Assembly (NCBI GenBank): GCA_963760795.1
Contig: CAVXEP010000032.1
Span: 224,001-288,000 of the forward strand
DNA from: an uncultured delta proteobacterium
GTDB taxonomy: Bacteria > Desulfobacterota > Binatia > UBA9968
Reading direction: 5' to 3'
Length of the DNA: 64,000 nucleotides
Of this stretch, positions 6,024-52,970 are shown piece after piece; positions within the stretch are counted from its first letter, which is position 1, and every line of letters begins with the position of its first letter. Both the position numbers and the translations under genes were made by a program. A model generated the notes under the pieces. The model worked only from the letters and a program-made list of their open reading frames with translations, searched no databases and had not been told where the DNA came from.

Positions 6024-7559
6024 TTAACCCTCGATGAGGCGCGTGCTGGCTATGCTTTTGGTTACGTTTCTTTCACGGCATCCAACCGTCTGAACGAAAT
6101 CTGTAGCTTGTATCGCCTGCCCATTAAAAGTCTCTCCTGAGATTGAAACGCTGCTATCGCCGCATTGGATACCACTTTGCGAAATGTTGAAACGCAGAAT
6201 CAAGTCATCGAGACCGTCTCCATTAACATCCCTAAAACGCCCCTTTCCATCGATATCTGAAACCTGATTAGGTCCGAATCTCACAGTCTCTGGATCAATT
6301 GCGCGAGCGTCAAAACTTGTGGAGCTAAGGATGGCGACAGGACTATCGCTTCTGCTTGGATTGACCGTATTGGCAGGGTCGTTGGGTTGAAAATCGAGAG
6401 CAACATTCAAGGGGCCAGTCTGAAACTCGACCGCGCCGATGTCGCAGGTTGCCACGCGGAAAAAGCCAAGCTGATCGGTCTGTGGACAGGCGGCTGAATT
6501 ACCTGCGCCGATCGCCGGACTGTCGGAGAGGAGCGGGAAATATCCAAGCCCCGGTTCGCCGTTGTCGGTAAAGGGACCCAATTTTGGATCACCGATGAAA
6601 TCGGTTGGCTGTAGTTCAACAGTGCAGCCAATGAGGTCGTCGAATAAGTTGTTGCCTAGCGAGGTAATTTCACCGTCGCAATTGGGCCCTCCAACGAAAG
6701 GGGCACTGGAAGTATTTTTTGCCAGGATCGTGTTTTGTAGGATCATTGAGTCGTTGTTTTGAACGTCATTGGCTATGCCGCCAGTACGGGGGAAAGCTAT
6801 AGCGGTGAACGACAAATTTTCCGCAATCGTGCCATTGGTGATACGAACAAGCCCAAGTATATTGCGAATGCCGCCGACACCAATCCCAGAATTGTTAGCA
6901 ATCGTCGTATTTATAATGGTCATTTCTCCGCTGGAGTTTAAAATACCGCCCGTGCGATCGCCGATATTGTTGGTTATGGTCGTATCCCTTATGGTTACAA
7001 GACCAGTGTCATTACTTATGCCTCCTACATGATGAAATCCACTGTTGCGGGCGACGCTGCTACCGGTAATAGTTAAAGTACCATGATTCGCGATACCGGC
7101 GCCGCCGAATTCATCAGCCGTGTTTCTTTCTATCACGCTGTTCGTTACGGTCGCCGTACCAAGATTGAATAGTCCAGCACCGCCACGTAAGGTATCGCCT
7201 TGCGTAAGAACCAGCGCATCGAGAGTAACTATTGCGCCAACCGCGACGTGAAAGATACGGAAGCGAGGCGCGTTGACATCCCTCTGTATTACGGCTTCCC
7301 CTGGTGAGCCACCACGGATCGTCAATTTCCCCGTTATAATCGGTAAACCATTTGGGCCATCGTTGTCGTTATCGACCTGCGTCAATGTATAGGTTCCAGG
7401 ATCGAGAAGTATCGTGTGCGGTCCCACCTTGAGATTGGCTTTGTTGATGGCTGCGATTAAGCAAGTCACATTACCCGATGAGCAGTGGAATTTAGCGGCG
7501 TGGAGCGGCGCCGACACTCCAAATATCAGTATGATTATGGCGAGAGTGAATACAGTCAT
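6024..7559 (-). CDS. Secreted beta-helix protein (polymorphic-membrane/choice-of-anchor-Q-like) with C-terminal DVNGDG Ca-binding-like domain
   Basis: Signal peptide, GGGI-N repeats, SPAIGAG...CPQTDQLG...CDIGAVE motif, PVAILSS...FDA...DVNGDGLDDLILRF tail. Confidence 0.75.
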   Translation of the reverse strand: MTVFTLAIIILIFGVSAPLHAAKFHCSSGNVTCLIAAINKANLKVGPHTILLDPGTYTLTQVDNDNDGPNGLPIITGKLTIRGGSPGEAVIQRDVNAPRFRIFHVAVGAIVTLDALVLTQGDTLRGGAGLFNLGTATVTNSVIERNTADEFGGAGIANHGTLTITGSSVARNSGFHHVGGISNDTGLVTIRDTTITNNIGDRTGGILNSSGEMTIINTTIANNSGIGVGGIRNILGLVRITNGTIAENLSFTAIAFPRTGGIANDVQNNDSMILQNTILAKNTSSAPFVGGPNCDGEITSLGNNLFDDLIGCTVELQPTDFIGDPKLGPFTDNGEPGLGYFPLLSDSPAIGAGNSAACPQTDQLGFFRVATCDIGAVEFQTGPLNVALDFQPNDPANTVNPSRSDSPVAILSSTSFDARAIDPETVRFGPNQVSDIDGKGRFRDVNGDGLDDLILRFNISQSGIQCGDSSVSISGETFNGQAIQATDFVQTVGCRERNVTKSIASTRLIEG

Positions 7560-46148: not shown

Positions 46149-47285
46149 CTAGCTAACTTTGTAGAACTCGGCGCAATTGTCCCAGAGTATTTTGCGCTTG
46201 TCGTCGTCTGAGATTTTTAGCTCGAGAAAGCTCTCGATGGCGTGGGGGTATTTTGAATCGCCGTGGGGGTAGTCGGTGGAGAAGACCAATCGATCGGTGC
46301 CGATATAGTCGATAACATATTTCACGCCGGCTTCGTCCGGTTCGACGGAGACGAACACTTGGCGTTTGAAGTATTCGCTAGGCTTCATGGTCAGGTCCTT
46401 GGCCCAGATATCCCCTTCGCGTTCCCAGCCTTCGTCCAGGCGCCACAGGAGCCAGGGCAGCCAGGTGCAGTTGGCTTCGAGAAAGGCGACGCGCAGCTTG
46501 GGGTGGCGGGCGAGGACGCCGCCAGAGCAAATCGCCACCAGTCCGAGCATCTGTTCCATCGGCTGGGCGACGGCGCGGCGCAGCATGAAGTTGGGCTCGA
46601 ACCAATCGCCGGTCTGACGCGCGGCGGAGGACGACGATTCGTGAAAACCCACCGGCACCGCCAGCTCTTCCAAGGTGCTCCACAGCGGTTCGTAATAAGC
46701 GTCATACCAATTGCGTTCGTTCATAATGTTGGAGCGCAGAAACACGGCGCGAAAGCCCAGCTCTTTGACACAGCGTTTGGCTTCCTTGACCGCGTCGTCG
46801 ATGTCGAAGGGCGAAAGCATGCCGGCGCCGAGAAGCCGGTTGGGATCCTTCTCGCAAAAATCATAGAGCCAGTTATTATAAGCGCGGGCCAATGCGGCGG
46901 CGAAGTTGGGCTCCATATGCGGCTCGCTCAGCACATTCAGCCCCCGGGTAGGAAAGAGCACGGCGACATCTATGCCTTCGATATCCATGGCTTCGAGTTG
47001 GACTTCGGCGGTCCAGCCGCGCTCGGAGTGGTCGCGGTAGGTGCCCTGGTTGCGATTGAAATTTTGACCGCGGTTGGGAGCACCGCTACGCACACCCTGC
47101 GATTGGAAGACGCCCCACGCCCGGCCGTCGTCGGGATGGGCCATGCGAAGATCGCGGACATTCTCGCTCGTCAGGCCGCGCGGTGCCATGGCTTTGAATT
47201 TGCTGTCGATGTAGCGGTCCCACAGATCCACCGGCTCCATCAGGTGCATGTCGCTATCCAAAACTTTCATGCCGTTCTTGGTCAT
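46149..47285 (-). CDS. Amidohydrolase_2 family protein
   Basis: DSDMHLMEP, AYNNWL, FHE, STDYPHGD; GGAGG RBS. Confidence 0.92.
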   Translation of the reverse strand: MTKNGMKVLDSDMHLMEPVDLWDRYIDSKFKAMAPRGLTSENVRDLRMAHPDDGRAWGVFQSQGVRSGAPNRGQNFNRNQGTYRDHSERGWTAEVQLEAMDIEGIDVAVLFPTRGLNVLSEPHMEPNFAAALARAYNNWLYDFCEKDPNRLLGAGMLSPFDIDDAVKEAKRCVKELGFRAVFLRSNIMNERNWYDAYYEPLWSTLEELAVPVGFHESSSSAARQTGDWFEPNFMLRRAVAQPMEQMLGLVAICSGGVLARHPKLRVAFLEANCTWLPWLLWRLDEGWEREGDIWAKDLTMKPSEYFKRQVFVSVEPDEAGVKYVIDYIGTDRLVFSTDYPHGDSKYPHAIESFLELKISDDDKRKILWDNCAEFYKVS

Positions 47286-47376
47286 GGCAGCCTCCTTTGA
47301 ATGTTCAATGATCGTTACAACAGCACTCGTATTTATGTCAACGTATCTGATAAATTGCTCTGCGGTGGGAGGATCT

Positions 47377-47844
47377 ATGCGAATTAGCCGTTTTGCCTCT
47401 TGTTGCGTGCTCGCTTTGGGCCTGTTCCTGGTTGCTCCGACGTTAGGCCAAGCGCCGTCGAAATCGGCGGCAAAATCCATCACGGTCTACAAGACCCCGA
47501 CCTGAGAATGCTGCGATGGCTGGGTCGTGCACCTGGAAAAAAACGGATTCAAAGTGGAAAAGAAAATCTTATTTGGCAACGCGTTTACCGACCTTAAGCG
47601 CCAGCGTGGTGTGCCGCAACAACTTTTTGCTTGCCATACAGCTTTGATCGATGGCTACGTGATCGAAGGCCACGTGCCAGCCGACGTAATCGAAAAATTA
47701 CTCAAGGAAAAACCGCCAGTCGTCGGTCTCGCAGTTCCTGGCATGCCAGCCGGGTCACCGGGGATGGAAGGCGGCAAGCCAGAGCCGTACAACGTGCTCA
47801 CGTTCGACAAGAACGGCAAGACCGCCGTGTATGCGAAAAGGTGA
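47377..47844 (+). CDS. DUF411 (CopG-like) periplasmic metal-binding protein, predicted selenoprotein (UGA 47503-47505 = Sec43), 155 aa
   Basis: GGGAGG RBS, signal peptide, VYKTPT-U-ECCDGWVVHL matching family VYKSPTCGCC..W..HL; ACHTA, EGHVPA, GLAVPGMPAGSPGME. Confidence 0.85.
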
Positions 47845-47884
47845 GAGAAACAAGCTTGGAGTGCTGGAGTAGAGGAGTGATGGA

Positions 47885-48898: not shown

Positions 48899-49900
48899 AT
48901 GATGCACAGAGCTTTGACGATTCGAGTCTTGCTAGCGCTCCTATCGGCCCTATCGGTCGGATCGCAGCTCTCGGCACAGGATAGGAAAGCTCTCCCGGTC
49001 GTCTTCACCGGCTTGGCATGGAACAGCGAGCTGCCGTTTCGGGTGGCGTTGGCGCGCGGCTATTTCAAAGCGCAAGGTCTCGAAATCCAGCCGATCTTCG
49101 TGCGTGGCGGGCCGATGGCATTGGCGGCATTGTCGTCGGGCGACGTGAACTTCGCCGAGATCGGCGGTGCGCAGGCCGTGATGCGCAGCCGGGCGCGTGG
49201 TCTAGAGGTGTCGATCATCGCTTCCATCGCCAACGCGACGACGTTTCAGTTGATCGGCGGCCGAGCCGCGCGCAGCCTCGAAGACTTGAAAGGGAAGATT
49301 ATCGGCGTCACCGGCGCGGGAGCGTTTTCCGACTTTGCCATGAGAACGTTTCTGCGCGTCAAGGGCATCGATCCCGACAAGGATGTGACGCTGCGCGCCG
49401 TCGGCGCCGGCAGTGGGCGCATTAGCGCTTTGGAAAAGGGCATCATTGCCGCGGCGCCATTTTCGCCGGAAGACACTGTAAGACTGCTGCGTCTCGGCTT
49501 TCCAATGATCGCCAACATGGGCGACAGTTTGAACATTCCGCAAAGTATCGTCGTCACGCGCAACGATGTGCTGGTGAAAACGCCGGATACCGCCAAGCGA
49601 TTTCTAAAAGCATTGCTGCTTGGCATGCAGCACGCCAAATCCAACAAAGCCGACGCGATCAAAGCGGGATACGAAGGCGGACTTCAAGGCGAGCCGGATA
49701 TCGTCAGCCAGGCATACGACCTTTTTGCGCCGGCCTTTTCCGCAGATCTTTCATTTAACCTTGCTGGTTTTCAGTTCATGCTCGATGAAGACAAGCGCGC
49801 CGGATTGATCGACGGCAAATTTATCCTCGAGCGCGTGCTCAACGATCGTATCTTAAGGACCGCTCAGCAGGAGCTGCGCGCAGAGGGGCGGCTCAAGTAA
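48899..49900 (+). CDS. ABC substrate-binding protein (NMT1/SsuA-like), tandem paralog
   Basis: Shares LAWNSE.PFR.ALARGYFK and AQQELRAEG.L with previous gene. Confidence 0.88.
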   Translation: MMHRALTIRVLLALLSALSVGSQLSAQDRKALPVVFTGLAWNSELPFRVALARGYFKAQGLEIQPIFVRGGPMALAALSSGDVNFAEIGGAQAVMRSRARGLEVSIIASIANATTFQLIGGRAARSLEDLKGKIIGVTGAGAFSDFAMRTFLRVKGIDPDKDVTLRAVGAGSGRISALEKGIIAAAPFSPEDTVRLLRLGFPMIANMGDSLNIPQSIVVTRNDVLVKTPDTAKRFLKALLLGMQHAKSNKADAIKAGYEGGLQGEPDIVSQAYDLFAPAFSADLSFNLAGFQFMLDEDKRAGLIDGKFILERVLNDRILRTAQQELRAEGRLK

Positions 49901-49903
49901 GCG

Positions 49904-50311
49904 GTGATGATGGATCCACATGTTTCGCTGCGTCAACTTTCCGCAACGCAAGCTGGCGCCATGGGTTTCTGGAATATTCGCTGGCAAGTCGAGAATCTTG
50001 GGGCGGAGGGTCTAAGAATTAATTCAGCGCGCTTGCCGCATGGGCAATTCAAATCGGATGAGCAGTCTTTTGCTCCGGGCCTCGATCTGGCACCGGGCGG
50101 GAGCGCACAGTTTCACAGCCTCGTGCAATGTCATGAGCCGGCGGGACTGGTTACGGAAAACGCTTTCGTCATTTTTCACTGCCAATGGCGCGGCGAAGCA
50201 TGGCGAATTTTCGTTCGTATTCGCGTCACTGTAACGGCTGACGGCGCGCCGGAAACGGCGGCTGAGCTGATCACCACACAGAAGGTTGGTTTTTCCGGAA
50301 TCTCGAATTGA
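49904..50311 (+). CDS. Hypothetical beta-rich protein
   Basis: 3 nt after the previous stop; RLPHGQF and ENAFVIF motifs. Confidence 0.7.
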   Translation: MMMDPHVSLRQLSATQAGAMGFWNIRWQVENLGAEGLRINSARLPHGQFKSDEQSFAPGLDLAPGGSAQFHSLVQCHEPAGLVTENAFVIFHCQWRGEAWRIFVRIRVTVTADGAPETAAELITTQKVGFSGISN

Positions 50312-50322
50312 GGTGCACCGAC

Positions 50323-50544
50323 ATGGCTAGCAAAGAAGAGGATCTGTACATTCTCAAGCGGATGCGCGGCTGACACAGCAATTGAGGCCTCGGCTTCGAA
50401 GAGACCACGGGTATGGTCTCCAACGCGGTGAAGCAGGATCAGAAGGAAGTTGTCGCGGCGCTCAAGCGGTTGCGCGCCCAGCACAGCGACGACGCGGAAT
50501 ACAAAAAGCTTAGGAAAGATCTGCCGAAGGAGTGGCCGTGCTGA
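50323..50544 (+). CDS. Predicted 73-aa selenoprotein with two Sec (U17-H-S-N-U21)
   Basis: GAGGTG RBS; MASKEEDLYILKRMRG-U-HSN-U-GLGFEETTGMVSNAVKQDQKEVVAALKRLRAQHSDDAEYKKLRKDLPKEWPC; perfect hairpin GAGACCA-CGGGTA-TGGTCTC at 50401-50420. Confidence 0.72.
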
Positions 50545-50601
50545 AAGCAGTTTCGGGTTACGGGTTTTCTGCCAGGGGCACAGAAGAGATTCGCAAGAAC
50601 C

Positions 50602-50632
50602 GTAGGATGGGTGGAGCGCAGCGATACCCATC
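50602..50632. repeat. REP-like palindrome
   Basis: GTAGGATGGGTGGAGCGCAGCGATACCCATC (GTAG foot plus hairpin). Confidence 0.7.
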
Positions 50633-50650
50633 GATCATATTCCGCGCAGG

Positions 50651-51406
50651 TTAGTCGGTCAATTTCACACGCGGTTGGCGAAGCTGTAGATCCTTAACCC
50701 CGCCCCAAAATTCACGTTTGCCGGTCATCGCCTGGACATGGCCGTCCCATTCGAGCGTGAAGGCGGTCAATCCCAACTTAACCGCCGCGCGAATTTTATT
50801 TTGCGTTACATCGTCGGTGGCAAGAAGGCGGATAGCGTCAATCTGTCGGCTGCCATGGCCTTCGTCCTGGGCCGCGTGAAGTTGATAGGTCGCCGCGGCC
50901 CGCGGCGAGAAGCCGTAGTGGCCGGTCAATTCGCGATAGACCTTCTCGGAGATTTTTCCCTCGCCGCCGAGTTGGCTTTCGACAAAGGCGAGCATGGCGA
51001 CGCCTTCGAGGGCGGAGCGGCGCTGGCAGCAGCCAACGATCATCTCGATCGCAGCCAAGGTGCCTGGCGCCGGTTCGGCATTGTCCGCCTGTTCGCGCGA
51101 AATGCCGCCTGCTTCGAGAAATTGCAGCATGATGTCGACGTGGGTACGCTTGCCGCCGAGTTCTTCCATGAAGTTTTCTAAGACCGTCGCCATCACGGTG
51201 TATTCCTTTGCCGACACCGCGTTGATCGCCATATGGCCGAAGAAGATCGGGTTGGTGCGCACCCGCAGATAGTGCTGCACTTCGCCGAGAATGATTTGTT
51301 CCTTGGTCCAACGGTGCTTGATGATGCCGTCGAACCAGGGATGTTGCTCCATTGGCACTTCCGCGGCGTAGCTCCACAGTTCATCGATAAATTCTTCTGG
51401 CTTCAT
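50651..51406 (-). CDS. Heme-oxygenase-like diiron enzyme (PqqC/CADD-like)
   Basis: HPWF, ENFMEE-x6-H, FVESQ, YQLHAAQDEGH. Confidence 0.85.
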   Translation of the reverse strand: MKPEEFIDELWSYAAEVPMEQHPWFDGIIKHRWTKEQIILGEVQHYLRVRTNPIFFGHMAINAVSAKEYTVMATVLENFMEELGGKRTHVDIMLQFLEAGGISREQADNAEPAPGTLAAIEMIVGCCQRRSALEGVAMLAFVESQLGGEGKISEKVYRELTGHYGFSPRAAATYQLHAAQDEGHGSRQIDAIRLLATDDVTQNKIRAAVKLGLTAFTLEWDGHVQAMTGKREFWGGVKDLQLRQPRVKLTD

Positions 51407-52098: not shown

Positions 52099-52970
52099 AT
52101 GGAAACAATCAAAATTGGCATCGGTACTTCGAGCATCGGCCGGTTCCTGCCCTATGTGGCTGAGGCGGCCGGTTTGTTTGCCGAGCAAAATATCGCCGTT
52201 GAGATCGTCAACCAGCTCGACGAAGAGAAAGTTGTCGAGGACATCGTCTCGCAAACTATCCCCATCGGCACCCCCAACGCGCCGTCGCTGATTTTCTCCC
52301 AGCTCAACGGCAACGACCTGGTCATGATCGGCGGCCTGTTGAACCGTCCGGCATTTTATTTGGTGGCCAATCCGAAGATCGAATCGATCGCCAACCTGAA
52401 AGGCAAACGAGTCGGGATCAATCAACCCCGCCGGATGGCGGGCATGATGATGCTGGCGCTATTGCGGCGCTGGCAGTTCGATCGCGACAAGGATCTCGAA
52501 CTGGTCGATCTCGGCCTCAACGATCGCAGTTTCGAGGCGCTTCAGTAGCGGCGATCTCGACGCCGCGCTCTTGCCGCCGGAGAAAGCCTTCATGGCCGAG
52601 GCCGAATGGCTTGCGCATTGTCGCCGATACTCTCGCACTCGATAGCCAATGGGTGCCGCTGGCGACCACGCGGCGTTTTCTCGCCGGTAACCGCGACCTG
52701 GTTGGCAAGGTCGCGGCGATCTACCGCGACAGTGTCCAACTATTCAAGAACGATGCGCCATTGGCGCGCGCTACCATCGGGCGCCAACTGCCGGCTTTGC
52801 GCAACCAACCGCAGGTGCTCGACAAATGTTACCGCGTCTTCGCCGAGCTGTTTGAGCCGACGTTAATTGTCGCGCCGGCCGCGCTCACCGCCGTGCTTGC
52901 CGAAGTCGCCTTGCAGGATGCACGAGCCAGCCGCCTGGTGCCGGAGAATCTGATTGCTGAGCTGGGCTAG
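52099..52970 (+). CDS. ABC substrate-binding protein (NMT1-like), two +1 indels near 52546 and 52607
   Basis: Removing two single T bases gives a continuous EALQSGDLDAALLPPEKAFMAEAEGLRIVAD. Confidence 0.8.

Follow-up and report, generated by a model that had tools for sequence, protein, structure and literature searches.

A predicted di-selenocysteine protein encoded beside a heme-oxygenase-like dimetal enzyme in uncultured Binatia

A 64,000-nt stretch of genome from an uncultured delta proteobacterium (Desulfobacterota, Binatia, UBA9968; assembly GCA_963760795.1, contig CAVXEP010000032.1, positions 224,001 to 288,000 of the forward strand), referred to here as the window, contains at 50323-50544 a small gene with two in-frame UGA codons that very probably encodes a real selenoprotein. 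Both UGAs would be read as selenocysteine (Sec) through one shared SelB-binding hairpin at 50401-50420, and the product is predicted to fold into a domain of four helices, displaying the two selenols of a UxxxU motif at a spacing of one helical turn. We propose that this small protein works with the beta-sandwich protein encoded directly upstream and with a convergently encoded, CADD-like heme-oxygenase-like dimetal enzyme (HDO), and that the Sec pair would be its working site.

The locus had been the subject of a preliminary description, which proposed a small redox or metal-binding protein with two Sec residues, decoded by a single hairpin and encoded at the end of an operon. We have high confidence in the part of that interpretation that sequence can test. 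The HDO gene on the other strand, a weak helix at the second UGA, and a DUF411 selenoprotein candidate in the same gene run had been overlooked.

Results

Gene structure and coding signal

The small gene and its signals were located as follows, with codon counts taken from the 107 distinct sequences described below.

50323-50544, + strand: predicted di-selenocysteine protein gene, 73 codons plus a TGA stop (50542-50544)
50310-50315, + strand: Shine-Dalgarno-like GAGGTG, 7 nt 5' of the ATG, overlapping the TGA stop of the 49904-50311 gene
50371-50373, + strand: first in-frame UGA (putative Sec17); TGA in 105/107 and TGY (Cys) in 2/107, aligned with an invariant archaeal Cys
50383-50385, + strand: second in-frame UGA (putative Sec21); TGA in 106/107 and TGT in 1/107, aligned with a second invariant archaeal Cys
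50401-50420, + strand: SECIS-type (Sec insertion sequence) hairpin with a 7-bp stem and the 6-nt loop CGGGTA, inside codons 27-33 (E-T-T-G-M-V-S)

The start codon, ATG 50323, lies 11 nt past the stop of the upstream gene, and purine-rich motifs of the GGAG/AAGGA type occupy the position of the ribosome-binding site (RBS) in most of the 29 relatives printed. When TGA is read as Sec, the frame yields a product of 73 residues with Sec at positions 17 and 21. The GAGGTG motif, the ATG, the two TGAs and the frame open to the stop at 50542 were all found where the preliminary description had placed them. The table-11 ORF list of the window gives, at this place, only a 43-codon ORF from ATG 50413 (+ strand) and an antisense ORF of 151 aa (50176-50631, minus strand).

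Variation among the 107 distinct nucleotide sequences followed the usual coding signature in the + frame, with values of 0.243, 0.129 and 0.352 at the three codon phases. The ratio of nonsynonymous to synonymous polymorphism (pN/pS) was 0.476 over codons 4-16 and 18-20 and 0.493 over codons 35-73. Protein-level selection is equal before and after the TGAs, and coding conservation is present on their 5' side. The antisense ORF was rejected as a gene, as its frame is interrupted by stops in 56 of the 107 sequences; its earlier reading as a shadow ORF holds. Conservation of the TGAs in more than 100 genomes likewise led us to reject a sequencing error or a pseudogene. Taken with the single genomic occurrence of the hairpin pattern described below, these signals go well beyond chance.

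A 267-nt contig from a sediment RNA library, which derives from another sample, corresponds to 50155-50421 apart from five differences. It runs from the end of the upstream gene across both TGAs, which are unchanged, and through the hairpin, and its one change within the small gene is a synonymous Asn codon. The contig is a weak hint of co-transcription of the upstream gene and the small gene, because DNA can occur in RNA libraries. Four RNA-library runs were compared; the locus was hit by short contigs only, their depth cannot rank expression, and stretches that no contig covers carry no meaning. A scan for promoters and terminators gave the same site counts as shuffled sequence.

Conservation of the two UGA codons and their Cys counterparts

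In a six-frame search of 61 related genomes the gene was found in 49, and 49 of the 50 match rows carried two TGAs. These two-TGA rows span three families of the order, with identities down to 43%; the one remaining row is a fragment cut off by the end of its contig. Scanning one genome per species with a pattern returned 194 relatives, of which the best 80 were kept. Most relatives are metagenome-assembled genomes (MAGs) labelled Binatia or delta proteobacterium, some are Chloroflexota, and the remainder carry other labels that may reflect binning. Even the genomes listed as complete are long-read Binatia MAGs, and for this reason no cultured host is known.

Across 110 loci the gene was readable in 108, and 107 distinct sequences were used for codon counts. 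Both TGAs are kept in 105 of these, and the stops at the two positions are always TGA, never TAA or TAG. One Chloroflexota MAG (L099) has CxxxC, and a second locus (L112) has CxxxU. The 61-genome comparisons include two unpublished genomes (G004 and G035), whose loci (L035 and L046) are among the 107 sequences, L046 being also one of the ten profile rows. Both are ordinary UxxxU forms, and their omission would change no conclusion.

A profile search of 1.84 billion representative proteins gave 120 hits, the majority of which are 43-aa calls that start at Met31, while a minority are full-length proteins of ~71 residues with CxxxC. For one such CxxxC protein (P0082), the named nearest relatives belong to a Thermoplasmata MAG; nearly all are hypothetical proteins and none has a Pfam domain. 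Joint alignments placed both Sec positions on invariant Cys columns, and the more distant Thermoplasmata relatives are all CxxxC. Homologues therefore carry Sec or Cys at both positions and never Trp or variable residues, which had been raised as the contrary outcome. A code in which TGA specifies Trp or Gly was rejected on the grounds that the aligned residues are Cys and that TGA also ends this and other genes. The TGAs themselves are genuine rather than misread TGG or TGC, as they are kept in 105 of the 107 sequences and in the RNA-library contig.

Public product names, looked up for five clusters, were 'hypothetical protein' or none, and mostly concerned the 43-residue stump. These short calls are explained by the gene structure itself, because a standard gene caller must yield them for a gene of this kind. 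Only two longer homologues were seen, both lacking domains and probably with mis-called starts; as far as sequence goes, there is weak evidence that the small protein stands alone, free of fusions.

The same calls could be taken at face value, as a 16-residue peptide followed by a separate 43-residue protein from ATG 50413, with the hairpin serving only as a coding or regulatory feature. The prevalence of calls from Met31 and the invariance of that Met agree with such an arrangement without read-through. Yet the calls are the necessary output of a gene caller either way, and purifying selection is as strong on codons 4-16 and 18-20 as it is on codons 35-73. Stops that are always TGA in 105 of 107 sequences, and that align with invariant Cys residues of full-length, stop-free homologues, also speak against two separate products. 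Moreover, Met31 lies inside the hairpin, and no RBS was noted before it. We regard the absence of read-through as very improbable.

A conserved hairpin placed to serve both UGAs

The arms GAGACCA (50401-50407) and TGGTCTC (50414-50420) enclose the loop CGGGTA (50408-50413), which begins at a distance of 34 nt from the first TGA and 22 nt from the second; the perfect 7-bp hairpin and its spacing are thus as first reported. Folded alone, the hairpin has an energy of -9.2 kcal/mol, and its 20-nt pattern occurs once in the 6.58-Mb genome. A 2026 review (PMC13188914) sets these limits for bacterial SECIS elements: 3-9 nt in the loop, 4-16 bp in the stem, a G within the first two loop positions, a UGA-to-loop distance of 16-37 nt, and a minimum free energy of at most -7.5 kcal/mol. 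The hairpin satisfies all of these constraints for both UGAs. It also resembles the bacterial SECIS consensus, as given there, in its 6-nt apical loop, in the G at loop position 2 followed by another G, and in its 7-bp upper stem. It departs from that consensus in that a single hairpin would have to act on two codons, spaced by 12 nt, of which the first is near the outer limit, and in that a second small helix encloses the second UGA.

All seven pairs of the stem are kept in 105 of 107 sequences, counting a change from A-U to G-U in 22. The stem codons are close to fixed, with GAG in 107/107, ACC in 107/107, ACG in 85/85 and GTC in 105/106; the other 22 sequences have GCG in place of ACG, which gives the G-U pair. 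Synonymous sites in the loop and beside the stem vary by comparison. The third base of the loop codon GGN is T, C, A or G in 78, 25, 3 and 1 sequences, the TCN codon just 3' of the stem varies 79/21/4/3, and the GAR codon just 5' varies 87/20. Synonymous diversity over codons 22-34 is 0.217 versus 0.63-0.66 elsewhere. Frozen synonymous sites in the stem, together with a spacing within 16-37 nt for either codon, fit the earlier proposal that one hairpin serves both UGAs.

In the Cys/Cys form of L099, one stem pair is changed from G-C to G-U, and the energy rises from -9.2 to -6.6 kcal/mol. All eight archaeal Cys-form genes lack a hairpin at the equivalent place, with energies between +3.0 and -4.3 kcal/mol. 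A search of 49800-50800 with Rfam returned nothing relevant, and no bacterial SECIS match was seen.

A further structure was predicted immediately upstream of the hairpin.

50382-50399, + strand: predicted weak helix enclosing the second UGA (RNAalifold consensus)

Its arms, TTGAGGC and GCTTCGA, flank a loop of 4 nt (50389-50392). The paired third codon positions are nearly fixed (GGC 87/87, GGC 99/99, TTC 105/107). The helix has no two-sided covariation and is confounded by amino-acid constraint; a role for it in the model is possible only, and uncertain.

Sec machinery of the host genome

The host genome (6.58 Mb on 35 contigs, 88.9% complete) contains selB (410 bits), selA (612 bits) and tRNA-Sec (76.7 bits), all above curated cut-offs, as well as selD (379 bits, also above its curated cut-off), which itself has one in-frame TGA. 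The full set of genes by which the preliminary description proposed to check its claim is therefore encoded. In the selD and fdhA genes of this genome a hairpin follows 12 nt after the UGA, with loops CGGGC and GGUCU, respectively. The selD loop resembles the CGGGTA loop of the small gene. The Sec codon of fdhA (G000:C10:54434) is followed by CACAGC (His-Ser), the same six bases that follow the first UGA of the small gene. This identity is probably fortuitous, given that positions 18-19 are variable in the small-protein family.

Family status and predicted fold

The read-through protein matched no Pfam family (E <= 0.01) and no NCBIfam family (E <= 1; June 2026 release), and ten Cys forms gave chance-level Pfam hits only, below the cut-offs. 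A UxxxU row is absent from the table of 119 selenoprotein families in the accessible part of PMC13188914. A literature search for a UxxxU selenoprotein was empty, and deep-Sep, BSepDB and Haft and Gwadz 2022, in their accessible parts, hold no such family. The comparison covered passages of the main texts; supplementary tables, including those of a groundwater MAG survey cited by PMC13188914, could list the family. That the protein could not be assigned to a known selenoprotein family agrees with the preliminary description, and from its sequence it appears to represent an undescribed one.

Among the double-Sec families in Table 1 of that review are a UxxU metal-binding family (NF041115), a UxxU FmdB-family protein, and the UxxxxU rhodanese/DsbD-like TsoB (PMC13188914). 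Two Sec residues in close proximity therefore have precedent, at least a predicted one. As in those entries, a single short motif holds both Sec codons with a few codons between them, relatives have Cys at these positions, the family was found by sequence analysis only, and one downstream SECIS presumably decodes both Sec. The small protein differs from them in its UxxxU spacing and in its small all-helical domain, where theirs are described as HMA, zinc-ribbon or rhodanese domains; it also lacks an NCBIfam or Pfam model, and its genomic partner is an HDO.

AlphaFold modelled the protein as four helices (residues 4-21, 25-35, 40-54 and 58-65) with a predicted local distance difference test (pLDDT) of 86.9. 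The model places the two Sec residues in the final turn of helix 1, at a spacing of one helical turn (i, i+4). The positions invariant across the superfamily are the two Cys/Sec, Phe25, Thr28, Met31, Arg64, Pro68 and Pro72, and the C-terminus always falls one residue past a W/F-P pair. Conservation is highest in the Sec loop, helix 2 and the C-terminal tail and lowest in residues 40-54; the region that encodes the hairpin lies within the most conserved stretch. With an all-helical fold, three residues between the Sec, and the motif at the C-terminal end of helix 1, the protein is not of the thioredoxin CxxC/UxxC type.

A fold search of the PDB with the small protein gave no match at E <= 0.001. 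The nearest shapes were small helix-turn-helix (HTH) domains (NarL, DosR, LiaR), with template modelling (TM) scores of ~0.5 and Foldseek E > 1. A natural Cys form (P0002) in the ESM Atlas matched GerE, Sigma70_r4 and HTH_Tnp_1 clusters at TM 0.55-0.65, below the bar for naming, and gave no usable feature hit. Since small HTH domains are the sole structural neighbours, and the gene adjoins genes that it could control, the protein might be a Sec-containing HTH-type regulator that senses redox state or metal through the Sec pair. All of these matches, however, fall below the bars of the tools, so that no family can be named, and no HTH Pfam model matches. The would-be DNA-reading helix (residues 40-54) is the least conserved part of the protein, and with 14 basic and 12 acidic residues the protein is near-neutral. 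We consider a regulator of this kind unlikely.

A conserved neighbourhood of three genes

Two further genes make up the conserved unit.

49904-50311, + strand: upstream partner, a 135-residue all-beta protein of no known family; directly upstream in 78/80 loci
50651-51406, minus strand: heme-oxygenase-like dimetal enzyme (HDO), PF14518 at 3.2e-17; in 72/80 loci

The upstream gene is probably co-translated with the small gene. Its product has no Pfam or NCBIfam hit. AlphaFold predicted an eight-strand beta sandwich (pLDDT 95.0), for which the PDB matches are generic immunoglobulin-like sandwiches only (TM 0.3-0.44) and the ESM Atlas matches are unnamed clusters only. When all ORFs of 86 loci were clustered, the beta-sandwich gene was present in 84; no other cluster exceeded 35 of 86 except three, in 72, 58 and 46 loci, which are taken to be antisense shadow ORFs.

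Presence and absence of the beta-sandwich gene and of the convergent HDO gene each track the small gene across the 61 related genomes. Ten genomes lack all three genes alike, and the four that disagree are fragmented assemblies in which the hits fall at contig ends. The association with the 49904-50311 gene, put forward earlier as a point to examine, was thus confirmed in both comparisons. Genes for the two NMT1-type binding proteins, which the preliminary description included in the operon, occur in 36 and 38 of the 80 loci, and an amidohydrolase gene in 33. The beta-rich upstream gene therefore stands as operon context, and the NMT1-type genes are not core. A thiamine-salvage unit made up of the NMT1 proteins, the amidohydrolase and a TenA-like gene was considered and rejected, as the NMT1 and amidohydrolase genes are found in fewer than half of the loci and the HDO keeps the full dimetal ligand set.

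Between the two convergent genes lies a 34-nt palindromic repeat (50600-50633), which has eight copies in the genome (<=4 mismatches) and also occurs on many unrelated contigs of one RNA-library run. It may be an element like a repetitive extragenic palindrome or a bidirectional terminator.

The convergent HDO

The ORF list starts the HDO gene at ATG 51448. The true start is probably ATG 51406, with the first 14 listed codons untranslated, because relatives carry stops upstream of the Met at 51406. The nearest solved structures are CT610/CADD and 4-aminobenzoate synthase, with E ~3e-14. The residues aligned to CADD E81, H88 and E142, together with an H-x3-D-x2-H motif, are invariant in 47 sequences, and we take them to be the metal ligands. 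The set that includes H-x3-D-x2-H matches the description of three-His/three-carboxylate (3H/3C) sites in PMC13108848.

CADD, a self-sacrificing 4-aminobenzoate synthase (1rcw, 8va9), is the closest characterised HDO relative and belongs to the same heme-oxygenase-like fold family. Its product is built from two of its own residues, Tyr27 and Lys152, through long-range radical transfer (PMC13108848), and the Y27F substitution abolishes formation of 4-aminobenzoate (pABA). In a profile alignment the residue opposite Tyr27 is an invariant Phe and that opposite Lys152 a near-invariant Val, and the score with TIGR04305 is 57 bits versus a cut-off of 200. The HDO is therefore not a CADD-type pABA synthase. 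CADD also has no known partner protein, whereas one is proposed for this HDO.

A partner has been described for another HDO, MboA, which has the redox partner MboB (PMC13108848). Like MboB and the effector and redox-partner proteins of ferritin-like diiron oxygenases, the small selenoprotein is a small separate protein encoded beside a dimetal, O2-activating enzyme, on whose metal centre it is proposed to act. It has no relation to them in sequence or fold, and none of them is a selenoprotein; the likeness in role is drawn from gene linkage alone.

The chemistry of CADD suggests another role for the small protein, as substrate or scaffold of the HDO, donating a side chain such as Tyr60 or carrying a small molecule. 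As the HDO has Phe and Val where CADD has the Tyr27 and Lys152 that it consumes, a sacrificial residue would need an outside source. In the small protein Tyr60 is near-invariant, and the C-terminus is of fixed length. This role would give no reason for two Sec residues, though, and using up a selenoprotein stoichiometrically would come at a very high cost. The last residue itself varies (I, L, V, M, F or C). Complex prediction for a natural archaeal pair (P0243 and P0122) scored 0.00, a result that gives no verdict either way, so that nothing places Tyr60 near the HDO. A substrate or scaffold role is quite improbable in our estimate.

An HDO-type neighbour of the archaeal Cys form

The Thermoplasmata are represented by eight loci (L159-L166); ORFs were inspected in five of them and domains scanned in two. 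In all five inspected loci the Cys-form gene is directly followed, on the same strand, by an ORF of ~300 aa, and the two such proteins scanned combine a C2H2 zinc finger with a TENA/PqqC/Haem_oxygenas_2 domain. The next ORF in the two scanned loci (~6100-6440) encodes a Cys-rich protein of the Ta0938 family (PF11494), which in L166 forms a fusion with an alpha/beta hydrolase. A tblastn search (E <= 0.01) did not find the bacterial beta-sandwich gene in the Thermoplasmata loci. The archaeal Cys form thus stands beside an HDO-type gene, and the link between a CxxxC/UxxxU protein and an HDO recurs in another domain of life.

This recurrence bears on whether the small protein could be a general selenol/thiol oxidoreductase, acting as an antioxidant or disulfide reductase, with its position next to the HDO gene carrying no functional meaning. 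Most uncharacterised selenoproteins are probably redox proteins, according to PMC13188914, and exchange between Sec and Cys is typical of redox-active sites. Yet the predicted fold is all-helical and not thioredoxin-like. Classical exchange enzymes combine a single Sec with a single Cys, as UxxC or CxxU in almost every row of the table (PMC13188914), while 105 of the 107 sequences of the small gene have Sec twice. The presence or absence of the small gene also closely follows that of the HDO and beta-sandwich genes, and the link to an HDO-type gene is found again in archaea. A general oxidoreductase is accordingly improbable.

Other features of the gene run

An unannotated selenoprotein candidate of the DUF411 family (47248-47847, + strand; PF04214, E 4.6e-26), with an in-frame TGA at 47503-47505, heads the same gene run as the small gene. 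It has an N-terminus resembling a signal peptide, and its start codon is not fixed. The putative Sec is the first position of a U-x-C-C motif, and ORF lists split the gene at the TGA. DUF411 proteins presumably have a CxCC motif, with Cys where the candidate has Sec. The sequence P-T/G-U-x-C-C is kept in 15 of the 16 loci that carry a DUF411 gene upstream, the remaining one being broken. The candidate has no NCBIfam hit and no row in the accessible part of the 119-family table (PMC13188914).

Downstream of a glyoxalase-family gene, a third NMT1-type ORF (52099-52548, + strand) is short (149 residues) and may be a truncated binding-protein gene.

Discussion

The account that we favour, a di-selenocysteine protein acting with the HDO and the beta-sandwich protein, is as a whole probably the best explanation of the locus. 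That the small protein and the HDO form a functional unit is quite likely. We lean, somewhat less firmly, towards the Sec pair acting on the dimetal centre of the HDO. The small protein would then have an accessory role, in which it handles electrons or metal for the two-metal centre.

Our single best guess, which is tentative, is that the small protein is a two-electron donor, with the diselenol oxidized to a diselenide as M(III)M(III) is reduced to M(II)M(II). This version is suggested by a stoichiometry that fits reduction of the dimetal centre, by the resistance of Sec to irreversible oxidation beside an O2-activating site, and by the report that one HDO needs a redox partner (PMC13108848). 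Somewhat more doubtful, and still possible, is that the Sec pair is a metal-binding or metal-delivering site. This second version draws on the presence of Sec at both positions, as in several metal-binding double-Sec families in PMC13188914, on the invariance of Met31, and on the richness of the archaeal neighbours in Cys and zinc sites.

A third version, which we think unlikely, is a two-protein radical or oxidase system in which an O2-derived hole is passed, in the manner of ribonucleotide reductase, to the Sec pair or to Tyr60. The HDO would be a CADD relative that has lost the sacrificial Tyr and Lys, and the small protein would quench and recycle the hole or use it for chemistry. We know of no example of Sec as an inter-protein radical or electron relay. 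If this version were true, the small protein would be a type of dedicated partner that PMC13108848 does not report for the HDOs it covers.

Several observations weigh against the account of a Sec pair that serves the HDO. All hosts are uncultured, and we infer selenium incorporation and translation past the UGAs from sequence. The distance from UGA to loop G is 36 nt for the first codon and 24 nt for the second, compared with 18-19 nt in the selD and fdhA genes of the same genome, and the first UGA falls at the outermost end of the accepted spacing range. In one sequence, L132, the stem contains a C-A mismatch, yet both TGAs are retained. The hairpin is almost without two-sided covariation, because it is nearly invariant, and the Cys/Cys form keeps the residues that the hairpin encodes, E-T-T-G-M-V-S, so that some of the nucleotide conservation is due to protein constraint. 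The proposed function is read only from gene neighbourhood and co-occurrence. In bacteria the HDO gene is convergent and not co-transcribed with the small gene, and the bacterial and archaeal HDO-like neighbours share 29% identity over 107 residues only. HDOs studied so far need no protein effector (PMC13108848). A diselenide, finally, is hard to re-reduce, which argues against electron donation and for the metal site.

The small protein would add a family to the known selenoproteins, one whose helical UxxxU motif and whose fold lie outside current models. The family is widespread in soil MAGs of Binatia and some Chloroflexota, where public annotation shows a 43-residue stump. With two UGAs 12 nt apart and Cys variants as controls, it would offer a natural case for the reach of one bacterial SECIS. 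The DUF411 candidate in the same gene run suggests that the selenoproteomes of Binatia are under-counted. The physiological supply of electrons and metal to HDOs is, to our knowledge, largely unknown. The conserved three-gene unit would tie Sec to heme-oxygenase-like dimetal enzymes and provides a concrete candidate for an HDO partner.

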